Positions 60,301-63,300 of a DNA stretch of 64,000 bases are shown one piece after another. The position numbers are program-made. Positions within the stretch are counted from its first letter, which is position 1. Every line of letters begins with the position of its first letter. The stretch is taken from the NCBI RefSeq assembly GCF_056712565.1, contig NZ_CM160072.1; one strand, 5' to 3'.

Positions 60301-63300
60301 TTGCTATTCGCCTCGCAAGAACGGAGAGCCGTCGATTGACACTAAGGGCGGAGTGACATAATTTCAGGAGTGAGGGTAGAGCGGGGTTTCCCCCGCCCTG
60401 GTAGTCTTAGTAAGCTGGCCAGCTAATGACTAAGAGCACCACGATGATGAGTAGCTTCATCATGACCCTTTCCTTATTTAAGGCCCCTTCCTCGGGAGGG
60501 GCTTTCCCGTTTCAGCGTCCCGCTGAAATCTTCGGCTTACCTCCTTTCGCCCTGTATGCAGTCTATCGCTGACTTGCGGATAAAATAGTTTCAAGTGTGA
60601 TTATTGCGTAACGACTCGCAAAGAATATTTGCTGGCAGGATCGCAGACTGCAAAGTCTGCGGATTGACAATTGGACCGTGAAGGCATACTTTCAGGAGTG
60701 AGGGTAGAGCGGGGTTTCCCCCGCCCTGGTAGTCTTAGTATGCTGGGTAGCTAATGACTAAGAGCACCACGATGATGAGTATCTTCATCATGACCCTTTC
60801 CTTATTTAAGGCCCCTTCCTCGGGAGGGGCTTTTCCGTTTCAGCGTCCCGCTGAAATCGTCGGCTTATCTCCTTTCGCCATGCAAGCAGTCTATCGCTAA
60901 CGCGTAGATAAAATAGTTTCATGTGTTATTACTGGATGCGTGCTCGCAAATGTGCCCGTCATTCAGACGATTCCCGACAGTGTTTCATAATTCCTCCATT
61001 TTTCTCCCTTATTGGCTGGCTACACTAGTATCATTCCGCGAAACGTTTCAGGAAGAGAAACTCTTAACGATGAAAGGCAGTTATAAATCCCGTTGGGTAA
61101 TCGTAATCGTGGTGGTTATCGCCGCCATCGCCGCATTCTGGTTCTGGCAAGGCCGCAATGACTCCCAGAGTGCAGCCCCTGGGGCGACGAAACAAGCGCA
61201 GCAATCGCCAGCGGGTGGTCGCCGTGGTATGCGTGCCGGCCCATTAGCTCCGGTTCAGGCGGCGACCGCAGTAGAACAGGCTGTTCCGCGTTACCTCACC
61301 GGGCTTGGCACCATTACCGCCGCTAATACTGTTACGGTGCGCAGCCGCGTGGACGGTCAACTGATGGCGTTACATTTCCAGGAAGGCCAGCAGGTCAAAG
61401 CAGGCGATTTACTGGCAGAAATTGACCCAAGTCAGTTCAAAGTTGCATTAGCACAAGCCCAGGGCCAACTGGCAAAAGATAAAGCCACGCTCGCCAACGC
61501 CCGCCGTGACCTGTCGCGTTATCAACAACTGGCAAAAACCAATCTCGTATCTCGTCAGGAACTGGATGCCCAACAAGCGCTGGTCAGTGAAACCGAAGGT
61601 ACCATTAAGGCTGATGAAGCAAGCGTCGCCAGCGCGCAATTGCAACTCGACTGGAGCCGTATCACCGCACCAGTTGATGGTCGCGTTGGTCTCAAGCAGG
61701 TTGATGTTGGTAACCAAATCTCCAGTGGCGACACCACCGGGATTGTGGTGATCACCCAAACACATCCTATCGATCTGGTCTTTACTCTGCCGGAAAGCGA
61801 TATCGCCACCGTTGTACAGGCGCAAAAAGCCGGAAAACCGCTGGTGGTAGAAGCCTGGGATCGCACCAACTCGAAGAAGTTAAGTGAAGGCACGCTGTTA
61901 AGTCTCGATAACCAAATCGATGCCACTACCGGTACGATTAAAGTGAAAGCTCGCTTTAATAATCAGGATGATGCGCTTTTCCCTAATCAGTTTGTTAACG
62001 CTCGCATGTTAGTCGATACCGAACAAAACGCCGTGGTGATCCCCACCGCCGCACTGCAAATGGGCAACGAAGGCCATTTTGTCTGGGTACTGAATAGCGA
62101 AAACAAAGTCAGCAAACATCTGGTGACACCGGGCATTCAGGACAGTCAGAAAGTGGTGATCCGCGCAGGTATTTCTGCGGGCGATCGCGTAGTGACGGAC
62201 GGCATTGATCGCCTGACCGAAGGGGCGAAAGTGGAAGTGGTGGAAGCCCAGAGCACCACTACTCCGGAAGAGAAAGCCACCAGCCGCGAATACGCGAAAA
62301 AAGGAGCGCGCTCCTGATGCAGGTGTTACCTCCGAGCAGCACAGGCGGCCCGTCGCGCCTGTTTATTATGCGTCCTGTCGCCACCACGCTGCTGATGGTG
62401 GCGATCTTACTCGCCGGGATTATCGGTTATCGCGCCCTGCCCGTTTCGGCACTGCCGGAAGTGGATTATCCGACCATTCAGGTGGTCACGCTCTACCCAG
62501 GTGCAAGCCCGGATGTCATGACCTCTGCCGTTACCGCGCCGCTCGAACGCCAGTTTGGGCAGATGTCCGGCCTGAAACAAATGTCGTCGCAAAGTTCCGG
62601 CGGTGCGTCAGTTATCACTTTACAGTTCCAGCTAACCTTACCGCTGGATGTCGCCGAGCAGGAAGTGCAGGCCGCGATTAACGCTGCCACTAACCTGTTG
62701 CCGAGCGATCTGCCTAACCCGCCGGTTTACAGCAAAGTGAACCCGGCAGATCCGCCGATCATGACGCTCGCCGTCACCTCAACCGCCATGCCGATGACCC
62801 AGGTGGAAGATATGGTGGAAACCCGCGTCGCGCAGAAAATCTCGCAGATTTCCGGCGTAGGGCTGGTCACGCTTTCCGGCGGCCAGCGTCCGGCTGTTCG
62901 CGTCAAACTTAACGCTCAGGCGATTGCCGCCCTCGGTCTGACCAGCGAAACCGTGCGCACCGCTATTACCGGCGCTAACGTTAACTCGGCAAAAGGGAGC
63001 CTCGACGGCCCTTCCCGCGCGGTCACGCTTTCCGCGAACGACCAGATGCAATCCGCCGAAGAGTATCGCCAGCTAATCATCGCCTACCAGAACGGCGCAC
63101 CGATTCGTCTGGGCGATGTCGCAACCGTAGAGCAAGGAGCAGAAAACAGCTGGCTCGGCGCGTGGGCGAACAAAGAACAGGCCATTGTGATGAATGTCCA
63201 GCGCCAGCCCGGTGCTAACATTATCTCCACCGCCGACAGCATCCGGCAGATGCTACCACAGCTCACCGAGAGTCTGCCGAAATCGGTGAAGGTGACGGTA

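Follow-up and report, generated by a model that had tools for sequence, protein, structure and literature searches.

Two tandem sibB-type Ibs/Sib type I toxin-antitoxin modules between yegL and mdtA in Escherichia coli, the first with a sibA-like promoter

The yegL-mdtA intergenic region of the window (the whole stretch of 64,000 nucleotides analyzed here, which is 100% identical to Escherichia coli ATCC 11775) contains two tandem copies of an Ibs/Sib type I toxin-antitoxin module, as established by Rfam matches, translation, and synteny. On the left it is bounded by yegL, which encodes a vWA-domain protein (positions 59530 to 60189, − strand; open reading frame [ORF] and RefSeq annotation of the identical record), and on the right by mdtA (61070 to 62317, + strand; ORF and RefSeq annotation, locus positions 3381 to 4628). 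Both Sib copies produced full-length + strand matches to the Rfam covariance model RF00113 (SIB_RNA), which takes in sequence as well as secondary structure, with copy 1 matching at 60336 to 60478 (141 bits, E value 3.9e-30) and copy 2 at 60664 to 60806 (138.6 bits, E value 1.5e-29); each spans model positions 1 to 147 of 147, and the gathering score of the family is 56. The initial annotation had placed two Ibs/Sib copies between yegL and mdtA, and these matches, together with the exact peptides and the flanking genes, bear this out. The genomic site is that of sibA/ibsA and sibB/ibsB in K-12, and the RefSeq record of ATCC 11775 already names both ibs ORFs as Ibs family toxins; the Ibs/Sib pair found here is already known and ordinary. 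The founding paper on Sib/Ibs is reportedly that of Fozo et al. from 2008.

The two modules form a direct repeat of 289 nt with 88% identity and a spacing of 328 bp, of which about 270 bp is well conserved. These dimensions replace an earlier estimate of approximately 250 bp per repeat (measured, ∼270 to 289 bp with a 328-bp period), and the previously proposed left boundary at 60357 is in fact the −10 box of the first Sib promoter, 21 bp inside that promoter. The spacer between the units contains a perfect 8-bp hairpin (CGCAGACU GCAA AGUCUGCG; 60642 to 60659, + strand; −14.2 kcal/mol, z = −4.4) located 4 nt upstream of the −35 box of copy 2. Two further sets of repeat-borne ORFs were considered and rejected as genes. 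The 48-aa ORFs on the + strand (60426 to 60572 and 60754 to 60900) run past the Sib terminator and have no Shine-Dalgarno (SD) sequence, and the 38-aa ORFs on the − strand (60478 to 60594 and 60806 to 60922) start with TTG/ATG here and with AGG in K-12, with the many non-conservative residue differences between their two copies providing further ground against gene status.

Each Sib RNA is 136 nt long, at 60372 to 60507 (copy 1, with a sibB-type body) and 60700 to 60835 (copy 2), both on the + strand, with transcript ends carried over from the curated K-12 sibB noncoding RNA; both are presumably transcribed. The copy 1 promoter (60336 to 60362) consists of a TTGACA −35 box at 60336 to 60341, a TG at 60354 to 60355, and a CATAAT −10 box at 60357 to 60362, and the copy 2 promoter (60664 to 60690) consists of TTGACA at 60664 to 60669 and CATACT at 60685 to 60690. 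We called these promoters from the matches to the boxes and from homology to the curated K-12 units rather than from a generic promoter scan, which flagged neither of them because the spacer is 15 nt. Both transcripts are predicted to end in a G+C-rich hairpin, that of copy 1 lying at 60480 to 60507 and matching the 3′ end of K-12 SibB. A simple terminator scan flagged copy 2 and passed over copy 1, because its tail is short (UUUCC), as in K-12 SibB. Of the TTGACA promoter and intrinsic terminator that had earlier been assigned to each copy, the boxes and hairpins are present, and only the copy 2 terminator was picked up by scanning. The SibB terminator is an element recognized by ProQ (PMC10168233). 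The predicted folds are stable (copy 1, −60.5 kcal/mol, z = −4.4; copy 2, −60.4 kcal/mol, z = −3.9) and have the architecture and helices of K-12 SibB and SibC. Both copies retain every Sib helix as well as the promoter boxes and the terminator.

Opposite these transcripts, on the − strand, lie two intact ibs ORFs, each with a start codon, an SD sequence, and a stop codon. Copy 1 (60407 to 60463) encodes the 18-aa peptide MMKLLIIVVLLVISWPAY (WP_100249772.1) and copy 2 (60735 to 60791) the 18-aa peptide MMKILIIVVLLVISYPAY (WP_012767742.1). Translation reproduced both peptides exactly as they had been proposed, each followed by a stop, and confirmed two residue differences between them, L4I and W15Y (copy 1 versus copy 2); as had also been pointed out, ORFs of this size escape the ORF track, and both are missing from the list of 20-aa ORFs. 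The peptides are identical to K-12 IbsB (MMKLLIIVVLLVISFPAY, likewise 18 aa) at 17 of 18 residues for copy 1 and 16 of 18 for copy 2, with the phenylalanine at residue 15 replaced by tryptophan in copy 1 and tyrosine in copy 2, and with isoleucine at residue 4 in copy 2. These changes are conservative, exchanging hydrophobic or aromatic residues for others of the same kind. Both sibB-type peptides are putative toxins. The 19-aa IbsA peptide was found in neither window copy. Both ORFs lie wholly within the Sib transcripts as delimited from K-12 sibB, in agreement with the full antisense coverage that had been claimed, and the overlap also takes in the ATGATG start and the SD sequence AAGGAAAGGG upstream of it.

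Conserved blocks upstream of the ibs ORFs (60508 to 60605 for copy 1 and 60836 to 60933 for copy 2, − strand) contain a 5′ leader with a hairpin (UUUCAGCGGGACGCUGAAA) and a putative promoter. By analogy with the mapped 5′ end of ibsC, whose overhang over SibC is 18 nt (Han et al., PMC2943612), the copy 1 mRNA would start near 60525 to 60530 and the copy 2 mRNA near 60853 to 60858. A consensus scan of the − strand gave no match for the ibs promoter, and upstream of the leader hairpin no alignment was obtained with ibsC, ibsD, and ibsE, whose promoters are mapped. Two candidate hexamers picked by eye, TAGACT and TTGAAA, were rejected as too weak, and TTGAAA is not conserved. In the predicted fold of the ibs mRNA the SD region is single stranded and the target of the first recognition element of Sib (TRD1) lies in an apical hairpin.

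Comparison with K-12 shows that the two copies do not correspond one to one with the two K-12 modules. The initial annotation had proposed alignment to the K-12 sibA/ibsA and sibB/ibsB loci, which confirms the shared site, but both window copies are sibB-type rather than a sibA-plus-sibB pair. K-12 sibB/ibsB (b4437/b4668), the second unit between yegL and mdtA, has a 136-nt Sib with the same fold, and SibB is 96.3% and 94.9% identical to the two window Sib copies, departing from them at 4 nucleotides of the TRD1 equivalent and at 1 of the equivalent of the second recognition element (TRD2). K-12 sibA/ibsA (b4436/b4667), the first unit, adjoins yegL as copy 1 does, and its promoter is identical to that of copy 1 from −36 to −1. 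The likeness is confined to the promoter: the body of copy 1 is only ∼72% identical to SibA, with 37 mismatches over +1 to +136, and IbsA is a 19-aa peptide (MMKHVIILVILLVISFQAY), whereas copy 1 encodes an 18-aa peptide of IbsB type. Over −36 to −1, copy 1 has 0 mismatches to the sibA units of K-12 and cS91a, versus 11 to 12 to sibB-type units. Copy 2, in contrast, shares its −35 box and −10 hexamer with K-12 sibB, with four spacer bases differing (ATTGGAC versus ATCTTAT), and its whole promoter is identical to that of cS91a unit 4.

The successive segments of copy 1 match cS91a units 1, 2, and 3 with 0, 1, and 0 mismatches, respectively, the last of these comparisons covering the region upstream of ibs. 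Judged by these segment matches, copy 1 is a recombinant that combines a sibA promoter, the body of a second unit, and the far side of a third unit of a cS91a-like four-copy array. The number of units between yegL and mdtA varies from 1 to 4 among strains, and this variation and the mosaic structure of copy 1 together point to unequal crossing-over, with the two-copy array probably representing one state of a locus that it has reshuffled. Collapse from four copies and expansion from two are both compatible with the data as the direction of change. At their best-matching place, ∼4,500 of the 5,416 E. coli records that match show just 80 to 90% identity to the copy 1 stretch, and the records listed among those matches carry a true ibsA at the place of copy 1, while ∼306 records carry the window copy 1 allele at an identity of at least 99%. 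A text search of the available literature for copy-number variation of Ibs/Sib returned nothing specific. Strain-to-strain variation in copy number may already be described by Fozo 2012 (RNA Biol).

The module that has been dissected experimentally is SibC/ibsC. SibC (PMC2943612) shares with the window copies the P1 closing stem, P2, the P5 loop (TRD1), P6, J1/7 (TRD2), and the terminator, and in both cases the antisense RNA spans the entire ORF as well as the translation initiation region. The two differ in nucleotide sequence (57 to 58% identity), in the length of the RNA (141 versus 136 nt) and of the peptide (19 versus 18 aa), and in the region upstream of ibsC, which cannot be aligned with that upstream of the window ibs genes. 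The ldr/rdl and zorO-orzO/zorP-orzP type I toxin-antitoxin systems of E. coli likewise have a toxin that is small and hydrophobic and an antitoxin that is an RNA, duplicated in tandem within one intergenic region and with lineage-specific copy number (PMC2887945), but their sequences are unrelated to Ibs/Sib, and the Zor/Orz antitoxins pair with the 5′ untranslated region while Sib covers the whole ORF.

On this basis a working of the modules can be proposed. The − strand of each ∼270-bp unit would give rise to an mRNA for the 18-residue hydrophobic Ibs peptide, and the + strand to a structured 136-nt Sib RNA with perfect complementarity to the entire ORF, the start codon, and the SD sequence. 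By analogy with SibC/ibsC, Sib would first touch the 3′ portion of the ORF through its P5 loop (TRD1) and the translation initiation region through its J1/7 single strand (TRD2); pairing would then spread, translation would be blocked, and the duplex would be cut by RNase III, which is known to act on ibs/sib duplexes (bioRxiv 10.1101/510842). Any Ibs escaping repression would insert into the inner membrane and cause depolarization or a lowering of ATP. IbsC depolarizes the membrane (review PMC8309996), and Salmonella IbsA acts as an inhibitor of the ATP synthase Fo sector (bioRxiv 10.1101/2025.05.26.656083).

The SibC recognition elements defined by Han et al. (TRD1, +46 to +68) map through the alignment to a TRD1 equivalent at 60413 to 60435 in copy 1 and 60741 to 60763 in copy 2, and to a TRD2 equivalent, which complements the start codon and SD sequence of ibs, at 60463 to 60482 and 60791 to 60810 (all + strand). 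Five differences separate the two 136-nt transcripts, and recognition loops hold four of them. The 23 nt of the TRD1 equivalent contain three (60413, 60419, and 60420, with the W15Y codon among these), and the P6 loop, which helps TRD2 in truncated SibC constructs (Han et al., PMC2943612), contains one (60454, the L4I codon). The TRD2 equivalent has 0 mismatches in 20 nt and lies inside an identical run of 51 nt (60455 to 60505). The proposal that the substitutions sit at sites of discrimination is thus correct for TRD1 and P6 but not for TRD2. In SibC, a single matching TRD still represses, and repression is lost only if both are changed (Han et al. 2010, PMC2943612); since TRD2 is identical and either TRD is enough, the orthogonal pairs of the initial annotation are not predicted, and cross-repression is expected. 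The accompanying description of the pairs as co-evolving is uninformative for a cis-antisense pair, because one DNA substitution alters both RNAs and perfect complementarity is kept. By the TRD rule drawn from SibC, each of the two Sib RNAs would most likely repress the ibs mRNA of the other copy too, and the pairs would not be insulated. That rule derives from SibC and SibD under overexpression, and we assume that it carries over to sibB-type RNAs at native levels. We hold with high confidence the joint reading of the locus as two tandem intact Ibs/Sib modules of a known system at the canonical E. coli site, with a mosaic first copy and Sib RNAs that would cross-repress.

An insulated arrangement, in which each Sib represses its own ibs only and the differences were selected for that purpose, appears unlikely to us but has several observations in its favor. 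Beyond the clustering of differences in the loops of this pair, a survey of 15 sibB-type units from 8 strains found that variation within Sib is limited to the same P5/TRD1 and P6 loops (7 and 4 variable columns, respectively), while the stems are almost invariant. The TRD1 hot spot includes several synonymous third-position changes, and the residue encoded by codon 15 stays aromatic (F, W, or Y), a pattern that fits diversification at the nucleotide level with the peptide preserved; moreover, the Sib RNAs of K-12 reportedly discriminate against noncognate ibs mRNAs, apart from ibsA (PMC2943612). Against insulation stand the sufficiency of a single TRD in SibC and the identity of the two copies in TRD2, the P1 stem, and the terminator, with the 51-nt run extending over the translation initiation region. 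The copies are 96.3% identical, compared with 73% for the orthogonal SibC-SibD pair, which has 4 mismatches in TRD1 and 7 in TRD2 and identical runs reaching just 12 and 13 nt. Among 8 pairs of sibB-type copies from the same genome, 6 show 0 TRD2 mismatches and 2 show 1, and the concentration of changes in the loops has a neutral alternative, namely, that only the loops are free of the double structural constraint imposed by Sib and the ibs mRNA. A broader and rather improbable scenario is a rapidly recombining cassette array of 1 to 4 units, with promoters, bodies, and far sides traded among them, in which selection diversifies only the P5/TRD1 and P6 loops while keeping the peptide, loop-loop kissing insulates the copies despite their identical TRD2, and promoter swapping retunes the antitoxin-to-toxin ratio.

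We consider it very unlikely that the array consists of decaying relics, with one or both copies silent or nontoxic and persisting through the slow turnover of tandem repeats. The curated record for K-12 IbsB says only "putative toxic peptide," the ibs promoter was recognized neither by the − strand consensus scan nor by alignment with the upstream regions of ibsC, ibsD, and ibsE, the freedom of copy number from 1 to 4 implies that single copies are dispensable, and expression of ibsA is harmless in cells without ibsA/sibA (Han et al., PMC2943612). These points would all fit decay, but both ORFs have retained their start codon, SD sequence, and stop, the Sib helices, promoter boxes, and terminator are all preserved, the amino acid changes are conservative, and the stems and TRD2 are almost invariant across the 15 units, a near-zero diversity that indicates purifying selection.

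Under the preferred reading of two intact, cross-repressing modules, genome annotation gains little, since the Sib RNAs match Rfam over their full length and both peptides have RefSeq accessions in the same strain. The added value is modest and comparative, in the form of a 1-to-4-unit polymorphism that includes clear mosaics. Copy 1 of this lineage is a fusion of a sibA promoter to a sibB body and not sibA, a caution against carrying the K-12 names sibA/ibsA over by position to the units that come first in other strains. Insulation by kissing alone, if true, would run counter to the published rule of one sufficient TRD, and the sibA promoter on a sibB-type antitoxin in this strain would then be an example of a promoter swap that retunes the ratio. 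Same-genome sibB-type copies, whose differences lie almost entirely in two Sib loops and which share TRD2, would offer a clean natural test of TRD1-alone specificity in vivo.

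The gap between yegL (59530-60189, - strand) and mdtA (61070-62317, + strand) is 880 bp long and contains a single direct repeat family, with two copies of 289 nt that share 88% identity at a spacing of 328 bp (copy 1, nearer yegL, 60334-60622; copy 2, 60662-60950); the well-conserved part of each is ~270 bp. Both copies gave full-length + strand matches to the Rfam family SIB_RNA (RF00113, gathering score 56), at 60336-60478 (141 bits, E 3.9e-30) and 60664-60806 (138.6 bits, E 1.5e-29), and the - strand ORFs at 60407-60463 and 60735-60791 translate, up to their stop codons, to MMKLLIIVVLLVISWPAY and MMKILIIVVLLVISYPAY, exactly the peptides quoted in the initial annotation. 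Because the full-length matches and the quoted peptides were both found, far beyond chance, the presence of two copies of the Ibs toxin/Sib antisense RNA system at this site is confirmed, and the ibs ORFs are indeed too short for the ORF track and easily missed, neither being in the 20-aa ORF list. Both the system and its site are already known, and ATCC 11775 already carries the annotation: 886 bp around both copies match the E. coli type strain DSM 30083/ATCC 11775 at 100% identity, 5,419 of the 5,426 complete E. coli genomes have a match to this stretch, and in the RefSeq record of ATCC 11775 both small ORFs (WP_100249772.1 for copy 1, WP_012767742.1 for copy 2) lie between yegL and mdtA under the name "type I toxin-antitoxin system Ibs family toxin". 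At the same site the curated K-12 record has sibA (144 nt) with ibsA (19 aa) and sibB (136 nt) with ibsB (18 aa).

With ends placed by homology to the curated K-12 ncRNAs, the Sib transcripts would span 60372-60507 and 60700-60835 on the + strand (136 nt each). Their putative promoters consist of TTGACA at 60336 with a TG-extended CATAAT at 60357-60362 in copy 1, and TTGACA at 60664 with CATACT at 60685-60690 in copy 2; a generic promoter scan listed neither, since the spacer is 15 nt. The predicted folds are stable (-60.5 kcal/mol, z -4.4, for copy 1; -60.4 kcal/mol, z -3.9, for copy 2) and have helices matching K-12 SibB and SibC, namely P1 as the closing stem, P2, P5 as a long hairpin, and P6; J1/7 is single-stranded, and the terminator is rich in G+C. 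The copy 1 Sib, like K-12 SibB, has the short 3' tail UUUCC (60506) and the copy 2 Sib has UUUUC (60834); only the latter passed the terminator scan. ProQ is bound by SibA and SibB via their terminators, and how ProQ mutants bind SibB depends on the length of its tail and on its terminal cytidines (PMC10168233); given the two tails, ProQ binding or termination efficiency might differ slightly between the copies.

In both copies the Sib overlap takes in the whole ibs ORF together with the start codon and SD (AAGGAAAGGG), and the predicted fold of a 159-nt ibs mRNA leaves the SD region unpaired and places the 3' part of the ORF in an apical hairpin. For an ibs promoter, the generic scan gave no consensus match on the - strand, and the region upstream of a conserved leader hairpin (UUUCAGCGGGACGCUGAAA) was unalignable with those of ibsC, ibsD, and ibsE, which have mapped promoters. 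A perfect 8-bp hairpin at 60642-60659 on the + strand (CGCAGACU GCAA AGUCUGCG, loop GCAA; -14.2 kcal/mol, z -4.4) precedes the -35 box of copy 2 by 4 nt, has no U-tract on either strand, and has no counterpart at the equivalent position before copy 1 (z +0.86); it may delimit the ibs mRNA of copy 2 at its 3' end or block read-through from copy 1. We judged two pairs of longer ORFs to be by-products of the repeat rather than genes: the 48-aa + strand pair (60426-60572 and 60754-60900) extends beyond the Sib terminator, and the 38-aa - strand pair (60478-60594 and 60806-60922) starts with TTG or ATG here and AGG in K-12. On the yegL side, yegL, pphC, and yegI are contiguous (56835-60189, - strand), neighbors overlapping by 4 nt, whereas in K-12 pphC and yegI are separated by an additional gene, yegJ, on the + strand. 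Farther away, two JUMPstart elements (20447-20485, 61.1 bits; 44744-44782, 57.3 bits) and an algC RNA motif (30172-30221, 78.2 bits), all Rfam matches on the - strand, suggest that polysaccharide operons (O-antigen or colanic-acid type) occupy the middle of the window.

Alignment to the K-12 loci, a check proposed with the initial annotation, showed that copy 1 is not sibA/ibsA. By sequence, both window peptides are of the IbsB type, with 17/18 (copy 1) and 16/18 (copy 2) residues identical to K-12 IbsB (MMKLLIIVVLLVISFPAY), and the 19-aa IbsA (MMKHVIILVILLVISFQAY) is absent from the window locus. The copy 1 promoter (-36 to -1) has 0 mismatches to the sibA unit and 11 to 12 to every unit resembling K-12 sibB/ibsB (sibB-type); its transcribed body (+1 to +136) has 37 mismatches to sibA and 1 each to unit 2 of the four-copy array in strain cS91a and to the EC2 W-type unit; and the 103 nt that follow the 3' end of Sib have 0 mismatches to cS91a unit 3 and 9 to unit 2. 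Judged from these segment-wise matches, copy 1 is a mosaic, to which the positional name sibA/ibsA is not applicable; copy 2 is almost identical to cS91a unit 4. Among the fetched strains, the site holds one unit in AST85, two in K-12, A42, AVS0967, and the window strain, three in NCTC9080 and EC2, and four in cS91a, for which the simplest reading of the sequences is unequal crossing-over or conversion in a tandem array, either by collapse from four units or by build-up from two. The exact copy 1 allele (≥99% best-place identity) occurs in 306 of 5,416 matching E. coli records, while ~4,500 are only 80 to 90% identical over this stretch by the same measure and, among the matches listed, carry a true ibsA there. 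The K-12 sibB unit itself looks recombinant in its sequence, its body being close to NCTC9080 unit 2 (99.4%) and its far side to unit 3 (92.6% versus 89.5% for unit 2). The locus is a mosaic copy-number polymorphism.

SibC recognizes ibsC mRNA by two independent target recognition domains: TRD1 (+46 to +68, P5 loop), directed at the ORF, and TRD2 (+99 to +115, J1/7), directed at the translation initiation region (Han et al. 2010, PMC2943612). One domain is enough, repression being abolished only if both are mutated; swapping either to the SibD sequence yields repression of ibsD, and the P6 loop can help TRD2 in truncated constructs (PMC2943612). In vivo, ibs/sib duplexes are processed by RNase III (bioRxiv 10.1101/510842). 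Overexpressed IbsC depolarizes the membrane within minutes and needs its C-terminal and central hydrophobic residues (review PMC8309996), and Salmonella IbsA is reported to bind Fo subunits a and b and to lower ATP (2025 preprint, bioRxiv 10.1101/2025.05.26.656083); the curated K-12 record labels IbsB only a "putative" toxic peptide. By homology, the window modules would share SibC/ibsC-like recognition, RNase III processing, membrane/ATP toxicity, and ProQ as a partner.

Across 15 sibB-type units from 8 strains, Sib variation is limited to +42 to +57 (7 variable columns) and +80 to +83 (4 variable columns), with near-invariant stems, TRD2, and terminator (1 variable column in each of the latter two). 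Neutral drift would also concentrate changes in the loops, because they alone escape the base-pairing constraint that the Sib and ibs mRNA folds jointly impose. Some selection may act as well, as suggested by several hot-spot changes at consecutive synonymous third positions, by codon 15 switching among the aromatic residues F, W, and Y, and by ibs codons 6 to 11 lacking any variation, third positions included. Across strains there are at least six 18-aa IbsB-type variants; most of their differences lie at residues 4-5 and 15, and one variant also differs at 13.

The initial annotation placed the two peptide substitutions where each Sib must discriminate its cognate mRNA and considered this consistent with co-evolving orthogonal pairs. 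Five positions differ between the aligned Sib transcripts (96.3% identity): 60413 (A in copy 1, T in copy 2; synonymous, codon 17) and 60419-60420 (CC, GT; W15Y) in the TRD1 equivalent (60413-60435), 60454 (G, T; L4I) in the P6 loop, and 60506 (C, T; no coding effect) in the terminator tail. The placement thus holds for W15Y in TRD1 and L4I in P6 but not for TRD2, whose equivalents (60463-60482 and 60791-60810) are identical and inside a 51-nt identical run. The experimentally orthogonal SibC and SibD, in contrast, have 4 mismatches in TRD1 and 7 in TRD2, and their identical runs reach only 12 and 13 nt; same-genome sibB-type pairs in other strains have no TRD2 mismatch in 6 of 8 cases and one in 2 of 8. 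With TRD2 identical and either domain sufficing under the published rule, each window Sib should, by analogy to SibC, repress both ibs mRNAs through TRD2, and cross-repression is expected. Strict orthogonality therefore appears unlikely to us, although the rule derives from SibC and SibD under overexpression and the TRD1 and P6 changes would favor it. Co-evolution is uninformative for a cis-antisense pair, because a single DNA change alters both partners complementarily. The window pair provides a natural experiment on whether specificity can come from TRD1 alone.
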